A stretch of DNA of 64,000 nucleotides from the IMG/VR virus record IMGVR_UViG_3300013136_000003, positions 1 to 64,000 of that record. One strand, given 5' to 3'. Shown here in pieces: positions 6,491 through 46,897 of the stretch. Each line of letters opens with the position of its first letter. Position 1 is the first letter of the stretch. The notes under the pieces are model-generated. The model searched no databases. It was not told the DNA's origin and was given only the letters and a program-made list of their open reading frames with translations. Position numbers and translations under genes: made by a program. This DNA comes from a virus.

Positions 6491-6502
6491 AATTTGTGCC
6501 GG

Positions 6503-6948
6503 GGTGGAGGTGGTGGGATTCGAACCCGCGTCCGCCAAATAATGCGAGAAGCTCTCATTCACATGCTTAGTTCATTTTTCTAAACGAACAAAATTTGTGT
6601 CTTTCTTTTTTGGACTGACTTAAGACTCAGTCAGCGAACCTACCGCTAGAGACGATCTCAATGGGTATTGGATTTCTCCTCAAGGTTCCTCGCGGTTTCG
6701 TGAGCGGTACTACGAACCTTTTTTCCCGCATGCGCACATTTGGTCGTATGGAATTGGGCAAGTGCGGCCCAATGATTAAGCAACCAGTGCTAGGTCCTCA
6801 ACCTGCTCAGCAACGCCGATTGTCTCGTCATTGATGAGGCTCCAGATAGAAGTGTTGCCACTTACCGTTTGATACGAGTTAACGAGTTAGGATCTTCCTC
6901 GGCATGCAAGCTTAACCCATGTATTCACGTCAATAGCCTGTCACCCCC
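6503..6948 (-). ncRNA. ssrA: Phage-encoded tmRNA
   Basis: 5' GGGGGTGACAGGCTATTGAC; 3' GGACGCGGGTTCGAATCCCACCACCTCCA; acceptor stem GGGGGTG/CACCTCC with G3-U wobble and A discriminator; internal tag frame 6859-6776 ending LALVA*. Confidence 0.93.
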
Positions 6949-39642: not shown

Positions 39643-40263
39643 ATGAAATTAGTAAAAATATACGTTCTTAAAGATCCAAAAACAGACGAAGTTCAATATG
39701 TCGGTAGGTCAACTCAACCCGATACTAGGTATCGTCAACACATTTATTTAGCAAGAAAGCCAGGTAAAAAAGACATAAAGACCGCATGGATTCGAAGTTT
39801 GCTTGATGAAAATCAAAAACCGGTACTTGAAATAATTGACGAATGCGATCAATTTGACGCTCAAATTAGAGAAACTTATTGGATCGGCGAATATAAAAAA
39901 CTGGGAAATCTTAAAAATCAACGAGATTTTGTAGAAAATGGGTATTTATTTTCTGAAGAAAGTCGAAAGAAAATGTCAGAGTCAGCTAAAGGAAATACTA
40001 ATACTAGAGGTAAAAAAAGATCAGCTGAACAGGCATATCGGTGTGGTAATGCAAATAGAGGAAAACATAAATCAATAGAATCTATATTAAAAGTAAGTAA
40101 ACCAATTTTTCAATTAACTATTGAAAATGTATTAATCTGTGAATGGTCATCTCAGAAGGAAGCAGCAAAGACCTTGTCAATAAATCAAAGAAATATTTCA
40201 TCGGTTTGTAATGGGATTAGACAAACCGCCGGTGGATATAAATGGAAATTCAAAAATACCTAA
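39643..40263 (+). CDS. GIY-YIG homing endonuclease with NUMOD3/NUMOD1-like motifs
   Basis: KIYVLKDP...YVGRS; FSEESRKKMSES; WSSQKEAAKTL...TAGGYKWKF; AT-rich. Confidence 0.85.
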   Translation: MKLVKIYVLKDPKTDEVQYVGRSTQPDTRYRQHIYLARKPGKKDIKTAWIRSLLDENQKPVLEIIDECDQFDAQIRETYWIGEYKKLGNLKNQRDFVENGYLFSEESRKKMSESAKGNTNTRGKKRSAEQAYRCGNANRGKHKSIESILKVSKPIFQLTIENVLICEWSSQKEAAKTLSINQRNISSVCNGIRQTAGGYKWKFKNT

Positions 40264-41812: not shown

Positions 41813-42370
41813 ATGAAGAAATTATTGTTTTTGGTAGCTTTTGTTCTGCTAGCTATTAGCTGCGAAAAAGAACAAACGCCAGAACAGATCCTACCGAAAC
41901 CTACACAGGTTTCGCAAATCGAATTAGATGCGGGTTATACACAGTACGTTCTTCCGAACATTACGCTAACTCAGCTAAAAGCTGGCAACGGCAATGGAAA
42001 TGGAAACAACCCAAGAGTAGATAACGGTATTAGAATCGTTTGGGATTCAAATCTCAACAACGGAACCTCGCCAGATGGTCCAATTTACTTGGAAGAAGGA
42101 GAGAACATGCAGTTGAGCATCGAATGGTTGGCTGATGAAATTCCAGGAGCAACTGTAAATTGGTACACAAACGATCAGCAAGTAGCTAGTGTAAATTGGT
42201 TGGGCGTGCTATCTGAATCCTGGATAGGTTCTTGGTACCCAGGTTATTCGACAGTAACGGTTATTACAGCAGTCATTTACCGCCCGAAACCTAATTACAA
42301 CGGACCACACCCATGGAACGGTTGGCTTCAGCCTTACCAAGATAACGTCGTCGTACACATCGTTCCATAA
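41813..42370 (+). CDS. Lipoprotein with Ig-like segment
   Basis: Signal peptide MKKLLFLVAFVLLAIS-C followed by EKEQ; VNWYTNDQQVASVN..G Big_2-like motif. Confidence 0.7.
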   Translation: MKKLLFLVAFVLLAISCEKEQTPEQILPKPTQVSQIELDAGYTQYVLPNITLTQLKAGNGNGNGNNPRVDNGIRIVWDSNLNNGTSPDGPIYLEEGENMQLSIEWLADEIPGATVNWYTNDQQVASVNWLGVLSESWIGSWYPGYSTVTVITAVIYRPKPNYNGPHPWNGWLQPYQDNVVVHIVP

Positions 42371-42439
42371 TTTTTTACTGAAGAAAAACCGATTGATAAG
42401 ATCATAGTATATTATCAACCTAAGTTCTTAAACATTTTG

Positions 42440-42855
42440 CGTTCGGTAGAGGAATCAGGAAGTCATGAGCCTGGTTCTAGTGCGTGCCAGAACAACCTGT
42501 ATTGCAAAAGCAGGTAATGGCTCGAGCTAGGGGGATGCCCCACATGCAATGAAAAAGGCGGCCAAGCGGTCGGCATGAACTGTCTAACCAGCAGAGCTTG
42601 AGGTTTCGATCAGATACTTAAATGGTATCTTGCAAACGACGTACGGGTATACAAGATCCCCGTCTTGTGGCCGAATAATTTTCGTTGCGTGAAATAAGGC
42701 ACGCAGTTTGTTGTGGTGACACAGCAGCGGTTCATGGAGCAGCTAACCTGCTTTGAGCTGCCCTCGACAGAGGGAACTGATGGTCGTCGTACACACTTGC
42801 AGCGCAACATCGAACTGGAGGTAAAACCTAACCCTTCCGTACGTTCTACTGAGCG
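42440..42855 (+). ncRNA. Large structured non-coding RNA of unknown class (about 415 nt)
   Basis: 12-bp terminal helix 42440-42451/42844-42855, many internal hairpins, long-range complementarities, upstream promoter motif at 42386-42414 and its own terminator; no credible ORF. Confidence 0.75.
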
Positions 42856-42860
42856 ATATT

Positions 42861-42886
42861 AAACCGGCCACAGTGCCGGTTTTTTT
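42861..42886 (+). terminator. Rho-independent terminator of the ncRNA
   Basis: AAACCGGC/GCCGGTTT plus T run. Confidence 0.85.
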
Positions 42887-42904
42887 ATGCGACTCGCGCT
42901 GCAC

Positions 42905-42931
42905 AAAAAAAAGCCGGACTGGCCGGCTTTT
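42905..42931 (-). terminator. Terminator for the DUF4494-like gene
   Basis: A-run AAAAGCCGG/CCGGCTTTT. Confidence 0.75.
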
Positions 42932-42949
42932 AAGTTCGGTTGGTAGAAG

Positions 42950-43150
42950 TTACTCCTCCAAAACGCTCATGATCTTTGATTCCTGAACGCTCTCGATAAA
43001 GCACGGAGAGATTCCATGAGAGAAACGCTTTAACGCTTTGTCTTCTGCATCTCCGACCGAGTCGGCATCCACCAAGTGTTGTTCTTTCACTTTCTTGACC
43101 TTTCCGTTTTCCTGGTCAACTTCAAATCTGATTTTTACTAAGTAGTACAT
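42950..43150 (-). CDS. DUF4494-like protein
   Basis: YLVKIRFE...ENGKVKKVKEQHLVDADSVGDAE; Bacteroidota-associated family. Confidence 0.75.
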   Translation of the reverse strand: MYYLVKIRFEVDQENGKVKKVKEQHLVDADSVGDAEDKALKRFSHGISPCFIESVQESKIMSVLEE

Positions 43151-44328: not shown

Positions 44329-44510
44329 GCAAATCCATCTTCAATAAGGATTGGGAAGAATTCGTAAAGACGTTAACCCCAGAACAGCAAGAAGCTCTAA
44401 AACAATACGACGAAGCTGTTTTTAAAGCTCAGCAAAGAAAACCATTTATCGTTTGCTCAGCTAAGCTGGCTGAAGAATTGCAAAAATTACAAGAACAACC
44501 GAATGAATAA
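44325..44510 (+). CDS. Small hypothetical protein
   Basis: Overlaps both neighbours. Confidence 0.55.
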   Translation: MSKSIFNKDWEEFVKTLTPEQQEALKQYDEAVFKAQQRKPFIVCSAKLAEELQKLQEQPNE

Positions 44511-45572
44511 CTTAGATAAGCAATACTTTGAACTGTTGGAAGACATTCTAAGTAACGGAACACAAAAAGGAGACCGGACCGGCACTGGAAACATCTCAGT
44601 GTTCGGTAGAATGATTCGCCACAAGATGAGCGAAGGTTTTCCGCTCATCACAACCAAGAAAGTTTATTTCAAGGGGGTTCTCGTCGAACTTCTCTGGTTC
44701 CTCAAAGGTGGGACCAACATCAAGTACATGGTGGAAAATGACTGCACCATCTGGGTAGGAGATGCTTACAAAAAATTTCAAAGCGTTCAGAACGCCATCA
44801 TTGGGTTAAAGCCGCCTGCGTCTGATGAAGCACTCGCTAAGTACATCGATTGGTACGAAAACATTAAGACTAAAGACGATTTTATCGAAAAAATAAAAAC
44901 AGACGACCAGTTTGCACAAAGGCATGGTGATCTTGGCCCAGTTTATGGAAAGCAATGGAGAGAATGGCAAGGATCAATTCCATCAATCGATCAGATAAAA
45001 GATCTCATAGACAAATTAAAAAATAATCCAGAAGATCGTCGAATGATCGTAAGCGCATGGAACGTTCAGGAAATTCCATTAATGACTCTACCTCCGTGCC
45101 ACTATTCATTTCAGTGTTACGCTAGGCCATTAAGTTCAAAAGAGCGAGTTAATTTATGGAAGGTAAAACACGGAATGACAGAATCAGAAGAATTACTTTA
45201 CCTTTACTAAATTCAACATTAGAGGAACAAAATATTCCAAAATATGAGTTATCTCTAATGTTTAACATTCGCAGCAATGACGTTCCGTTGGGCTTGCCTT
45301 TCAACTTGGCTTCCTACGGCCTCCTTCTTGAGATCTTAGCGAAACACGTGAACATGGTTCCTGGAGAGCTGATAGCATCTATCGGAGACACTCACATCTA
45401 CTTGAACCAAGTGCCGATGATCAAGGAACAGTTGGAAAGAGAATCTTTTCCATTACCAACTATAAAGATAGATGACCGCCAAGTCGACGACATTTCTGAG
45501 TACAAGATAGAGGATTTCGAGATCTTTGGTTACCAATCTCAGTCGGCGATAAAAATACCTCTTTCTAATTAG
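44503..45572 (+). CDS. thyA: Thymidylate synthase split across two frames (44503..45210 and -1 frame 45156..45572)
   Basis: DRTGTG, FPLITTKK, ELLWFL, LGPVYGKQWR, RRMIVSAWN, LPPCH in part 1; RSNDVPLGLPFN, GDTHIYLNQ in part 2. Confidence 0.9.
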
Positions 45573-46897
45573 GCAGTAGGAATTGCTGGTGGGTTGATAG
45601 TTCCGCCAGCTAAGACGCGTTTTACGCCGTCACCTGTTCCCCAGGTTCTAAGATCTGGGCAATCTGCCAATTGTTGAGCAGTCACTGAATCATTCCTAAG
45701 AAGAGCTAACAGTCTAGCGTAGTACGGGAGTTTTAGAGTAGCAACCGTTGCTGCTAACCCGGCCGCTGGATTTGGATATTCCTTAACCCCAGCCGAACTG
45801 TAATTTCTAATTCCTTTAATTTTCAACTTTTTGGTAGTGTTGAACGGATTGTAGTCTGCTTGACCTCCTTCGGCTTGACGCCATGCTTTTAAGAACTTCA
45901 TCTTTTCTGGAGTTTCGTTAGTACCAAGCATTCTAAGAATTGCTCTGTAGAAATTATCATCATTAACAGATCCGCCTACCACCACGTCTGCTCCACCGAT
46001 AGTAGCGTACTTCGAAAGTTCTTCCTTTCCGAAACCTTTGTTTTGTAAGTTAGCAATCAGTCGCTTGACCAAACCGCCATCGATCAGCGATATTCCAGGA
46101 GAACCAGCGGGTTCTCCAGCTGACTGTTTTGCTGCTGACAGACTTGATTTGTGTTCCCAATGCCAGGGTTCTCTCGGTATGCTGGTAAACCCGTAATTCT
46201 TAGCGTTAGTGTTCATCCAAGCTTGAGCTTTAGCGTCCAACTTTAAGTCCAAGGCTGCACCCCAACCATGGTTGGAAGTTCCAGGAACGGCAGCGTACCC
46301 GCCTTGGTTGTATAGGCCCTTTTCCTTTGCCACTTGAACTTGCTGATCGTAATTTCTGTAAGAGTCTGTGATCTGCCAAGTTACACCATCTTCGGCGGCA
46401 GCCTTGACCATTTTTTCATAGTCTTCTTTCGCTTCTTTGTTAAGTCTGTGGTGAGTTTCTCCGTGACCAGGAGTAGAAATAGTTTCAAGATCGTTTGTAC
46501 CAAGCCGGCCGTTTTGCGCTTCACCTACTAGTTCTGAAAAACTCTTGAAATTTACAAGAGATTCGTCCGCCGGTTGGTTAGATTTAGTAGCAGAGTTAAA
46601 ATTAGCAATGGCATTTGCTGTTTCTGGGCCAAAGTAACCGTCCACACCGTGTTTTGGCATCTTAAAACCTAGGAAATCCAAGCCTGCTTGAATTTTCTTG
46701 ACGAGATCCGAGTACTGCATGTTACCTTTTGACTGAACGGTGATAGTTTTTCCAGAGTTGGCAAAATCCTCGAGCTCAGAATAGAATTCCTTATCGTTGG
46801 CGGAAAGACCTTTAGTTTCGTCCTTTTTTCCTCTTAACCAATCCCAAAAACCGCCCTCGTTCATCTGCTTTTCAAAATCGTCGAAGTTCTTTACCAT
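45569..46897 (-). CDS. Multi-domain peptidoglycan hydrolase: PG-binding + M15B (VanY-like) peptidase + C-terminal lysozyme-like domain
   Basis: HGVDGYFGPETANAI; SYRNYDQQ, AAVPGTSNHGWGAALD, EPWHW; AWRQAEGG..YNPFNTT. Confidence 0.85.
   Translation of the reverse strand: MVKNFDDFEKQMNEGGFWDWLRGKKDETKGLSANDKEFYSELEDFANSGKTITVQSKGNMQYSDLVKKIQAGLDFLGFKMPKHGVDGYFGPETANAIANFNSATKSNQPADESLVNFKSFSELVGEAQNGRLGTNDLETISTPGHGETHHRLNKEAKEDYEKMVKAAAEDGVTWQITDSYRNYDQQVQVAKEKGLYNQGGYAAVPGTSNHGWGAALDLKLDAKAQAWMNTNAKNYGFTSIPREPWHWEHKSSLSAAKQSAGEPAGSPGISLIDGGLVKRLIANLQNKGFGKEELSKYATIGGADVVVGGSVNDDNFYRAILRMLGTNETPEKMKFLKAWRQAEGGQADYNPFNTTKKLKIKGIRNYSSAGVKEYPNPAAGLAATVATLKLPYYARLLALLRNDSVTAQQLADCPDLRTWGTGDGVKRVLAGGTINPPAIPTA

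Follow-up and report, generated by a model that had tools for sequence, protein, structure and literature searches.

A free-standing RNA gene of giant phages, probably a two-core manA relative, that may self-assemble

Introduction

The window analysed here, a stretch of 64,000 nt (positions 1 to 64,000 of IMG/VR record IMGVR_UViG_3300013136_000003), belongs to an uncultured giant phage from lake water with a genome of about 250 kb. At 42386-42886, a first-pass annotation made from the letters of the DNA had placed a stand-alone RNA of about 415 nt and had suggested that it might be a ribozyme, scaffold or decoy. What kind of RNA is encoded at this locus, and does it act by itself or on a neighbouring gene? 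Positions 42440-42855 of the plus strand almost certainly encode a real structured RNA gene. The RNA is very probably a two-core relative of manA (Rfam RF01745) in which one stem is exchanged between the cores, and in all likelihood it is free-standing and not cis-regulatory. As the overall explanation we favour, as probable, a free-standing two-core manA-type RNA gene whose product may self-assemble as manA does in vitro. No published description of the two-core layout was found in a literature search that covered main texts.

Transcription unit and genomic context

The RNA and the signals that frame it are as follows.

42385-42413, plus strand: promoter-like site, AAAACC at 42385-90, 17-nt spacer, TATATT at 42408-13 (identified by motif match only)
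42424-42434, plus strand: boxA-like leader box GTTCTTAAACA, conserved in its place 3' of the -10 box and 5' of the first helix
42440-42855, plus strand: RNA proper, bounded by the outermost bases of terminal helix P0 (profile, covariation and RNA-library contigs)
42861-42887, plus strand: intrinsic terminator, hairpin at 42861-42882 and T run; three pairs compensated (helix 21)
42909-42931, minus strand: terminator of the convergent DUF4494 gene at 42950-43150, minus strand (terminator scan)

A profile built from nine homologues matches the window at 42440-42854 only. The AAAACC/TATATT arrangement, which the first-pass annotation had taken for the RNA's own promoter motif, is indeed present as a motif match, and comparable boxes were read upstream of all nine homologues, with AAAACC exact in eight of them, AAAACT in L066 and spacers of 16-17 nt. 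The site occurs just once in the window, so that it does not represent a promoter motif used generally by this phage. Compared with the boxA consensus GYTCTTTAANA (PMC5725501), the leader box agrees at 10 of 11 positions in the window, at all 11 in L058 and L041, at 8 in L046 and at 10 in the rest; the boxA-like 9-mer is no commoner in the window than expected by chance (37 matches vs 33.8). Both the promoter and the boxA box are putative assignments drawn from sequence. The predicted terminator of the RNA held up as well: its hairpin is followed by a T run and shows compensatory changes among the homologues, one of which is already visible in comparison with a sister phage of 95% identity.

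In the window, the terminator of the DUF4494 gene shows that no same-strand gene lies 3' of the RNA, and the next gene converges on the RNA also in L034 and L046. In six of the nine homologues, a same-strand gene of 73-76 aa starts about 30-45 nt after the terminator, so that a cis effect is possible in those six phages. The flanking genes differ among the homologues; no two lineages share the upstream neighbour, which in L060 and L066 is encoded on the opposite strand. The 5'-UTR location typical of manA was not found in the window, where the RNA is followed by its terminator and then by a convergent gene with a terminator of its own. With conserved promoter-like boxes, leader box and terminator amid varying flanking genes, the description of a stand-alone, ornate and independently transcribed phage RNA is borne out. 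Its characterization as ORF-free applies in a loose sense: ORFs of 34-66 aa can be called mechanically, but the frame of 66 aa, on the minus strand, contains at least one stop in all eight other homologues.

Fold statistics and covariation

The plus strand of 42430-42890 folds far better than its shuffled controls (-170.8 kcal/mol, z -4.68, equalled by 0 of 100 shuffles), as the first-pass annotation had expected of a functional RNA; the minus strand of the same interval has a z of -0.76, and 22 of 100 shuffles fold equally well. The consensus fold from nine distinct homologues, all from uncultured phages of ~250 kb, comprises 123 pairs with 97.6% of cells paired. Changes on both sides compensate each other in 48 of these pairs, compared with 27.3 in shuffled alignments (0 of 500 reach 48) and 3-10 in slid controls, where the compensated-cell counts are inflated by the shared descent of near-identical sequences: the nine homologues represent only about five or six lineages, five are near-identical, and the shuffles ignore relatedness. 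A further contig from a genome scan, L207, was left out of the counted alignment. Helices 11 and 13 carry no covariation evidence because their stems never vary. In the sister phage, the stem substitutions examined by eye keep the pairing and include one double change from U-A to C-G.

The covarying fold is fully nested, which contradicts the multi-pseudoknot picture drawn by the first-pass annotation. Among its four crossing pairings, TTCGAT/ATCGAA holds, being 100% paired with two compensated pairs, but is nested and not crossing. Two fail: TGCGTGCC/GGCACGCA reaches 73.6% pairing, and 6-7 of the nine sequences break it at three positions; ACGTACGG/CCGTACGT, at 83.3%, has two positions broken in 5-6 of nine and clashes with three fully paired helices. 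The remaining one, CATGAACTG/CGGTTCATG, is a candidate: it is 87.7% paired and has three pairs with changes on both sides, but six of nine sequences break one position, and it overlaps two supported helices. The proposed pairing of the RNA's ends was confirmed as a terminal helix (10 pairs counted, four changed on both sides, 92.2% of cells paired). Local stems fared unevenly in the homologue alignment. ACCTG/CAGGT, the AGCAG/CTGCT tip and CCCTC-GACA-GAGGG are supported, as is TGTTGTG-GTGA-CACAGCA, the latter by one-sided changes only; GTTCT/AGAAC (42.2% paired) and ACAAGA/TCTTGT (61.1%) fail. GAGCC/GGCTC is a candidate stem with 93.3% pairing, in which all changes are one-sided and which overlaps both P1 and P2 (see below).

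Relationship to manA

An Rfam search, suggested by the first-pass annotation as a check on novelty, assigned the RNA to a known class. RF01745 matches both halves over the full length of the model, so the RNA is not, as had been stated, of no recognizable class. The two matches in the window have E-values of 2.6e-12 and 1.9e-8 and scores of 52.2 and 37.2 bits, both below the gathering cut-off of 55.2 bits. Two overlapping full-length matches occur in all nine records, always at the same two places and with E-values of about 1e-8 to 1e-15. Scores are 40.2-56.9 bits for core 1 and 34.9-44.9 for core 2, and only one of the 18 half-matches, that of the sister phage with 56.9 bits, passes the cut-off; canonical copies reach 85-196 bits. 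RF01745 had no match in control genomes or in 31 unrelated viral records, and GOLLD, ROOL, OLE, RNase P and group II models found no match in the window even at E up to 10. Among 50 canonical manA records, 48 contain exactly one match (about 160-210 nt) and none a tandem, whereas the two-core RNA has two matches within about 415 nt in nine of nine records.

Both halves present the manA elements in canonical order (model positions 1-192), namely a GUGNCUGAAUAA/UAAGG loop, a three-hairpin junction, an ACCA-type loop and a GGUAUACA...AAUCC hairpin. These elements are conserved in all nine homologues; core 1 is without the GUGGUG loop, and core 2 has AACCU instead of ACCA. The covarying closing helix ends right after the last hairpin but encloses both cores, and local closure of a single core is weak in the window and, by reading, not kept in other lineages. 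A local stem-loop between junction and last hairpin, as in manA, was not found in the alignment (77.8% paired, uncompensated).

A sequence-only profile of the nine homologues gave one weak match among the canonical manA loci (L198, E 0.01), and blastn in distant mode with the RNAs of the window and of L063 gave none in 50,697 phage records. The pattern TAACCAG...GGGTATACA...CCC retrieved 21 viral stretches, with RF01745 in none of the 20 tested, the 21st being the sister phage. A junction-pattern search returned 14 stretches, three of them true (sister phage, L041 and L046); 11 of 13 tested lacked a manA match. The AGTCATGA pattern returned 18 viral stretches, three by chance (L059, L067 and L071). 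The 12 stretches from a metagenome scan all were duplicates of known ones or chance matches, and a genome scan gave three, of which one was true, namely a 2.4-kb contig (L207) that had been binned in a Holophagaceae MAG. The 65.7-kb record of L003, a relative in which a neighbouring protein is 68% identical, yielded neither a manA nor a profile match; as the record is only 24% complete, the RNA may still be encoded elsewhere in that genome.

Two cores and an exchanged stem

The covarying fold shows two manA-like cores inside a shared closing helix, PA, with P0 as an additional terminal helix. All parts lie on the plus strand and are listed here from 5' to 3'.

42440-50 with 42845-55, plus strand: terminal helix P0; covaries (helix 1)
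42451-42478, plus strand: P1 hairpin (42451-59 with 42470-78); seven of nine pairs change on both sides (helix 2)
42480-42484, plus strand: 5' strand of the manA-type closing helix PA, with its partner at 42838-42842 beyond core 2; 100% paired (helix 3)
42485-42601, plus strand: core 1 (RF01745 match 42452-42673, 52.2 bits); helices 4-9 are 95.6-100% paired
42486-89/42518-21 and 42495-501/42511-15, plus strand: stem P2 of core 1, with internal loop GTGCCAGAACAA
42522-28/42595-601, plus strand: junction stem P3 of core 1, six of seven pairs compensated; three hairpins, one with a CTAACCAG loop
42543-46/42574-77, plus strand: base of the middle hairpin of core 1; 100% paired, two compensated pairs
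42605-42610/42809-42814, plus strand: outer exchanged helix, 5' strand of core 1 with 3' strand of core 2; 100% paired, two compensated (helix 10)
42612-42630, plus strand: apical hairpin AGATAC/GTATCT of core 1; seen by eye in every homologue with differing letters (L041: ACTTC/GAAGT)
42637-42641/42785-42789, plus strand: inner exchanged helix PB, 3' strand of core 1 with 5' strand of core 2, enclosing core 2; 100% paired (helix 12)
42643-42663, plus strand: first GGGTATACA-type hairpin, of the manA 3'-hairpin type; matches the last hairpin of the manA model
42667-42782, plus strand: core 2 (RF01745 match 42644-42845, 37.2 bits); helices 14-19 are 96-100% paired
42670-72/42698-700 and 42678-82/42691-95, plus strand: stem P2' of core 2, with internal loop GTGGCCGAATAA
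42702-08/42775-82, plus strand: junction stem P3' of core 2, six of seven pairs compensated; hairpin loops GTGA, CTAACC and GACA
42817-42837, plus strand: second GGTA...CC hairpin, with the PA 3' strand (42838-42) directly after it; 100% paired, one-sided changes only (helix 20); matches the last hairpin of the manA model

A stem that ordinary manA forms as a local hairpin is here exchanged between the cores, and the single chain therefore folds as an interlocked pseudo-dimer. Individual column pairs illustrate how the enclosing helices are maintained: in PA, columns 48/428 are U-A in five sequences and C-G in four, and in PB, columns 225/373 are A-U in five, G-C in three and U-A in one. The local PA partner picked by the Rfam alignment was rejected, being not conserved in the homologues. 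A local version of the exchanged stem was likewise discarded (77.8% paired, uncompensated, one position never pairing).

Several elements are conserved to the letter. The P1 loop is an invariant loop of 10 nt that holds the palindrome TCATGA, its core GUCAUGA being identical in nine of nine sequences. The stem of the first GGGTATACA-type hairpin (helix 13) is invariant in all nine as well. In the apical hairpin of core 1 the AGATAC/GTATCT columns are gapped in the alignment, and its presence in all homologues was read by eye; an invariant TTGCAA follows it on the 3' side at 42630-35. A candidate contact of this core-1 TTGCAA loop with the linker after core 2 is 91.7% paired with three pairs changed on both sides; it is a lead only, because the columns are gap-shifted and the palindromic motif occurs three times. 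By reading, the AACCA-type loop of core 1 is complementary over 4-5 bp to UGGU(U) of the first junction hairpin of core 2 in every homologue; half of these UGGU letters sit in the 7-bp stem of that hairpin.

Occurrence in RNA libraries

Contigs of the RNA body are present in RNA libraries from three runs, X19, X20 and X22, the latter two from other studies; the intervals covered are 42451-42851, 42456-42838 and 42632-42849. In X19, a contig of 425 nt with a depth of 5817.7 covers 42451-42851 and the flank contigs have depths of 16.5 and 4.8; these are assembled contigs, the depth of which cannot rank genes, and finding a sequence in an RNA library is no proof of its transcription. The data suggest that the two-core RNA accumulates as a discrete RNA. 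The variant in X22 carries G42526A together with C42597T, a further compensated P3 pair. The high-depth contigs end short of the leader (42420-42450) and of the terminator (42861-82), and such cover gaps are not readable as evidence. Mature ends are at most weakly hinted at by the adapter letters attached at 42451 in X19 and by the points at which the contigs of the three runs stop (42838-42851). The two-core RNA occurs in giant phages of lakes and in RNA samples from sludge, sediment and digesters.

Possible function and alternative explanations

Judging from its motifs, the RNA would be transcribed from its own promoter through the boxA-like leader and end at its own terminator. The leader probably loads host Nus factors, which would protect the long untranslated transcript. 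The RNA would not switch a neighbouring gene. Instead, by analogy with one-core manA, contacts between the cores together with the free conserved loops would build an RNA-only particle or scaffold, and the word scaffold used in the first-pass annotation may turn out right. According to a preprint (10.64898/2026.07.01.735769), one-core manA forms pentamer-based decamers and a 60-mer cage via loop-loop contacts in vitro. These assemblies were prepared from highly concentrated RNA, with Mg2+ and heating; the term 'in vivo' is absent from the preprint text, which gives no biological role for manA (10.64898/2026.07.01.735769). That self-assembly is the working principle of the two-core RNA is, on this analogy, a serious possibility that falls short of likely. 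A more specific model, which by the same analogy we regard as conceivable but rather unlikely, is a covalent pseudo-dimer in which the intermolecular contacts of the manA cage have become intramolecular, while free loops join the chains into an RNA-only particle in infected cells, with the help of antitermination of the host rRNA type. The proposed free loops would be those of P1 and of the last hairpin, together with the CTAACC loop of core 2; the invariant, palindromic P1 loop, which might provide a new two-fold interface, would be the most notable of them. Five chains, for example, could form a decamer-like pair of rings and thirty chains a 60-core shell. At the position of the canonical GUGGUG loop core 1 carries a loop of 4 nt, and because of this and of the core-2 UGGU being half in a stem, the canonical kissing contacts may not exist here.

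The partial loss or burial of the canonical kissing loops would also suit an RNA that acts in trans as a single molecule, that is, a two-core manA-type RNA whose two sites bind a small ligand or a protein of host or phage, with the RNA serving as sponge, decoy or sensor and without RNA-only assembly. The RNA stands by itself and appears as separate high-depth contigs in RNA libraries, and the internal loops conserved in its two similar cores (GTGNCNGAAYAA ... TAAKG) might serve as pockets for a binding partner; moreover, the original proposal for manA was ligand binding (PMC2864571). No partner is known, however, and the palindromic invariant P1 loop and the loop complementarity between the cores are more easily explained by RNA-RNA contacts. 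The family's only structural work reports homo-oligomers (10.64898/2026.07.01.735769). Such a two-site binder is possible, if somewhat unlikely. Action in cis, with two manA aptamers as a tandem riboswitch that controls the terminator at 42861-42887 and sets read-through into downstream genes, is quite improbable. It would accord with the listing of manA as a riboswitch candidate in 5' UTRs (PMC2864571), with several canonical copies located 10-30 nt before a start codon, and with the terminator directly after the RNA and the small same-strand gene behind it in six of nine homologues. Against this, the window shares with L034 and L046 a convergent next gene, and another terminator hairpin comes after that of the RNA; where a downstream gene exists, a TATAAT box lies between it and the terminator, and the immediate neighbours are not conserved. 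The terminator stems, moreover, differ freely, and no conserved alternative (antiterminator) pairing was seen in the consensus fold.

Two further explanations concern what the locus is, and not how it acts. The first-pass annotation implied a new RNA class unrelated to known families, in which case the manA matches would be due to chance or convergence. The 17 of 18 matches under the Rfam cut-off and the nearly fruitless sequence-only profile search among canonical loci would be compatible with this, but 18 full-length matches at such E-values in nine of nine records, with none in the controls, make it very improbable. The shared order of GTGNCNGAAYAA loop, TAAKG, three-hairpin junction, CTAACC loop, GGGTATACA hairpin and adjoining closing helix also speaks for kinship. 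Finally, no terminator was seen between the upstream stop codon (42370) and the RNA, as would be expected if the locus were a non-functional spacer or belonged to the upstream gene as a processing element or 3' untranslated region. An upstream neighbour that differs per lineage and even changes strand, the conserved promoter-like boxes and the strong covariation render this extremely improbable.

If the particle model applies, the phage would make its own RNA compartment or scaffold. For sixteen years before the 2026 preprint on RNA-only assemblies, manA had been an orphan 'riboswitch candidate'. A simple gene-switch role for the family is disfavoured by the two-core form, which stands alone, seems to be abundant and has been retained among giant phages. 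The two-core RNA also resembles a natural experiment, in which evolution joined two protomers via an exchanged stem. Such a covalent pair predicts which assembly interface matters and offers structural biologists a larger, more rigid target. The boxA-like leader, in turn, suggests how phages produce long untranslated RNAs intact.

Comparison with known systems

GOLLD, ROOL and OLE, some of which are carried by phages, are large, highly structured and free-standing RNAs of unclear function that may form RNA-only assemblies. The two-core RNA is large, ornate and free-standing, too. Unlike them, it is the duplicated form of a small motif. Earlier RNA-only assemblies are dimers or dihedral multimers of long RNAs, according to the preprint (10.64898/2026.07.01.735769). 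The same preprint describes the strand-exchanged dimer of EGFOA, which likewise links two copies of one fold by strand exchange; there, however, the exchange occurs between two molecules at the 3' end, whereas here it takes place within one chain at an internal stem, and the families are unrelated. As in the boxA leaders of rRNA operons (PMC5725501), a GYTCTTTAANA-like box leads a long untranslated structured transcript and a leader-trailer helix, here P0, brackets the mature part, but the box in the window matches that consensus at only 10 of 11 positions.

The closest likeness is to manA itself (RF01745; PMC2864571; 10.64898/2026.07.01.735769). In both, a 5' hairpin and a closing helix are followed by the stem with the GTGNCNGAAYAA/TAAKG internal loop, a junction of three hairpins that includes a CTAACC-type loop, and a GGGTATACA-type hairpin adjoined by the closing strand; both are phage-borne with a putative promoter of their own just upstream. 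Canonical manA is a single domain of ~190 nt and the two-core RNA has two cores per chain, with one stem exchanged between them, a closing helix that spans both, an extra terminal helix and a P1 loop enlarged to an invariant palindrome-bearing loop of 10 nt. Its scores of 35-57 bits stand against 85-196 for canonical copies, and in the window it is not located in a 5' UTR. The carriers differ as well: manA occurs in T4-like cyanophages, whereas the two-core RNA is carried by giant phages whose relationship to Tenacibaculum jumbo phages is distant (about 33% identity in TerL).

Identity and Distribution of the Two-Core RNA

The ~415-nt RNA encoded at 42440-42855 (plus strand; termed two-core RNA) belongs with manA (Rfam RF01745) as a divergent relative and does not form a class of its own, because an overlapping pair of RF01745 matches was found in all nine records that carry it and in none of 31 unrelated viral records or the control genomes. 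At the curated Rfam thresholds, a tmRNA was the sole match in the whole window. When E-value thresholds were applied, RF01745 matched 42452-42673 (52.2 bits, E 2.6e-12) and 42644-42845 (37.2 bits, E 1.9e-8), both below the family cut-off of 55.2 bits; in the 95%-identical sister phage, the score was 56.9 bits and thus above it. Both window matches span model positions 1-192 and overlap by ~30 nt, and each borrows pieces of the two-core fold, the middle hairpin serving as the last hairpin of the first match and the first hairpin of the second. Every match of another Rfam model in the RNA stretch had an E-value of at least ~0.4. The first-pass annotation had recognised no class and suggested a new one, a view superseded by the matches to both halves. 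The plus strand folds far better than its shuffled controls (z -4.68, 0 of 100 shuffles fold as well), unlike the minus strand (z -0.76).

Pattern scans of IMG/VR, JGI metagenomes, and one genome per GTDB species retrieved nine distinct full-length homologues and one further locus, L207. In 1.56 Mb of fetched DNA, a sequence profile of the homologues matched once per locus and nowhere else, and GenBank phage records contained no similar sequence. L207 (CAWULW010000156.1, 2395 b) carries a complete copy with matching promoter boxes and the matching small ORF downstream. Its contig was binned into a Holophagaceae MAG, but most likely is a mis-binned phage fragment and no evidence of a host.

Consensus Fold

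The elements of the consensus fold are:

42440-50 with 42845-55, plus strand, terminal helix P0
42451-78, plus strand, hairpin P1
42480-84 with 42838-42, plus strand, closing helix PA
42485-42601, plus strand, core 1
42605-10 with 42809-14, plus strand, outer exchanged helix
42612-30, plus strand, apical hairpin
42637-41 with 42785-89, plus strand, inner exchanged helix PB
42643-63, plus strand, GGGTATACA-type hairpin
42667-42782, plus strand, core 2
42817-37, plus strand, second GGGTATACA-type hairpin, followed by the terminator

The RNAalifold consensus of the nine homologues comprises 123 pairs, many of which occur as three or four pair types, and 97.6% of the paired cells are consistent with it (87.4% in shuffles). 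Pairs changed on both sides number 48, compared to 27.3 in shuffles (0 of 500 reach 48) and 3-10 after sliding the partners by one to three columns, figures that overstate the independent events because the nine sequences represent about five or six lineages only. Both exchanged helices are 100% paired, with compensations that distinguish them from the local alternative: alignment column 180 covaries with column 398 and not with column 219, and column 225 forms three pair types with column 373, whereas column 174 is invariant. The local register of the stem after the junction, which is 77.8% paired, lacks compensation, and contains one position that never pairs, was rejected for this RNA.

The consensus fold is nested and lacks a pseudoknot, contrary to the multi-pseudoknot architecture initially proposed. 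The proposed pairing of the RNA ends holds among the homologues, as do most of the local stems except GTTCT/AGAAC and ACAAGA/TCTTGT. Among the long-range pairings, TTCGAT/ATCGAA persists, but TGCGTGCC/GGCACGCA and ACGTACGG/CCGTACGT fail; CATGAACTG/CGGTTCATG and GAGCC/GGCTC are possible alternative or tertiary contacts.

Transcription Unit and RNA Libraries

All nine homologues are preceded by AAAACC (AAAACT in the L066 homologue), a spacer of 16-17 nt, and TATAAT, TATATT, or TATAAA; the AAAACC-spacer-TATATT site occurs once in the window. The terminator covaries among the homologues, and the stand-alone unit postulated in the first-pass annotation is corroborated. Its description as ORF-free is correct insofar as the ORFs present are short and unconserved. 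A box between the promoter-like site and P0 (GTTCTTTAA in most homologues, GTTCTTAAA in the window) agrees with the boxA consensus GYTCTTTAANA (PMC5725501) at 10 of 11 positions in the window and at all 11 in two homologues. Because the window shows no enrichment of so short a motif, its weight lies solely in its positional conservation. A putative Nus-factor leader would suit a long untranslated, tightly folded transcript. Two terminator hairpins, one per strand, lie back to back at 42861-42931; with an A run on one side and a T run on the other, the second could act both ways.

Contigs of four metatranscriptome runs, each from a different study, were compared with 42300-43000. In a sludge run, 42451-42851 is covered by a single 425-nt contig (depth 5817.7), and the upstream and downstream flanks form separate contigs (depths 16.5 and 4.8). 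This is a strong hint, though no proof, that the RNA is far more abundant than the genes beside it, because the depths of assembled contigs give no ranking of genes and the libraries may contain DNA. Adapter letters directly precede 42451 in the sludge contig; contig gaps at the leader and terminator carry no weight either way. A 383-nt sediment contig covers 42456-42838, parts of the RNA are represented by digester contigs (depths 14153.6, 3103.2, and 52.2), and the fourth run (X21) yielded low-depth pieces only. One digester contig represents a new variant, in which P3 gains another compensated pair. The two-core RNA is a real, conserved phage RNA gene and probably abundant.

Source Phage and Genomic Surroundings

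The IMG/VR record is 87 kb long (completeness 32%, CheckV), and DNA of the window was found in lake-water metagenomes. Its large terminase shares at most ~35% identity with those of huge uncultured phages and ~31-33% with those of Tenacibaculum jumbo phages and Sphingomonas phage PAU. Near-complete relatives with the two-core RNA measure 252.6 and 253.1 kb. Features of the window include:

6502-6948, minus strand, tmRNA gene (Rfam RF00023, 80 bits; ARAGORN tag peptide GVAEQVEDLALVA)
39643-40263, plus strand, GIY-YIG / NUMOD homing-endonuclease-like ORF in the conserved block, directly before the exonuclease gene
42950-43150, minus strand, DUF4494 gene, convergent on the two-core RNA
44503-45572, plus strand, thymidylate synthase in two overlapping ORFs in different frames
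45569-46897, minus strand, 442-aa protein with VanY (D-Ala-D-Ala carboxypeptidase) and peptidoglycan-binding domains, probably a lysis enzyme

The left neighbour, a 185-aa gene, ends at 42370, and only short, unconserved ORFs lie between it and the DUF4494 gene. The wider block is syntenic (exonuclease, DUF6171 protein, small ORFs, two-core RNA, metallophosphoesterase, thymidylate synthase), but the immediate neighbours vary among lineages. Two of them have the upstream gene on the opposite strand; downstream, three of the nine homologues have a convergent gene and six a same-strand ORF of 73-76 aa. This ORF (start MGFN... or MSFN...) is conserved ~30-45 nt past the RNA terminator, including in L060, L066, L041, L058, and L063, and is missing at the corresponding place in the window; its L060 copy had no Pfam match. 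The two thymidylate synthase ORFs cover Pfam profile positions 1-154 and 159-264, with ~120 nt between the matched parts. The split could reflect a frameshift, a small insertion, or an assembly error, and no intron family matched there at Rfam thresholds.

Possible Function

According to a preprint (10.64898/2026.07.01.735769) that reports manA decamers built from pentamers and a 60-mer cage, and whose experiments were performed entirely in vitro, manA assemblies are held together by the kissing loops L5-L7', L8-L9', and L3-L8' and a GNRA-receptor contact. In canonical manA, GUGGUG can be read as complementary to ACCA and UACUGUA to UACAG; which helix numbers of the preprint these correspond to is a guess. 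In every two-core homologue, UGGU(U) of core 2 could base-pair with an AACCA-type loop of core 1. Three copies of a TTGCAA palindrome are present, one in a core-1 loop, one in the linker between the cores, and one in the linker that follows core 2, and the invariant P1 loop contains the palindrome UCAUGA. Judged by sequence, these features point to RNA-RNA contacts. From them we tentatively derive the reading that appears most likely, namely that one two-core chain would mimic a pair of neighbouring manA protomers, and that its free loops may connect such chains in a defined particle.

The main alternative, only slightly less likely, is that the RNA binds a protein or ligand as a single molecule. 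A classical riboswitch is very improbable here, because three lineages have nothing regulatable downstream and no alternative pairing is conserved. The two-core RNA bears directly on the purpose of manA assemblies and lends itself readily to experiment.

Comparison with Canonical manA

A pattern from the Rfam consensus retrieved at least 120 viral stretches, and 50 of 80 listed records were tested. Exactly one match was present in 48 (47 above the cut-off) and none in two; no tandem manA occurred among the 50, in contrast to the overlapping pair in all nine two-core records. We found no paper describing a two-core or tandem manA in searches of article texts, and the word "tandem" is absent from the text of the manA preprint. 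Canonical manA has a local stem after the junction, whereas the two-core RNA exchanges strands between its cores; ordinary manA also lacks the P1 loop with its palindrome. We regard the two-core RNA as a variant form within the manA family.

Ten canonical copies inspected in detail have a TTGACA-N17-TATAAT promoter directly upstream. What follows on the 3' side varies: a start codon after 10-30 nt (several copies), another structured stretch (some), a terminator (one), or a tRNA-like gene (one, by appearance only). Like the two-core RNA, some one-core copies reside outside 5' UTRs (L133:2795-3080 and L113:5273-5520, both plus strand); a few bases after one of them comes a tRNA-like gene (again by appearance only), and after another a terminator and a fresh promoter. 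Such copies fit a role as free RNA for the whole manA family.
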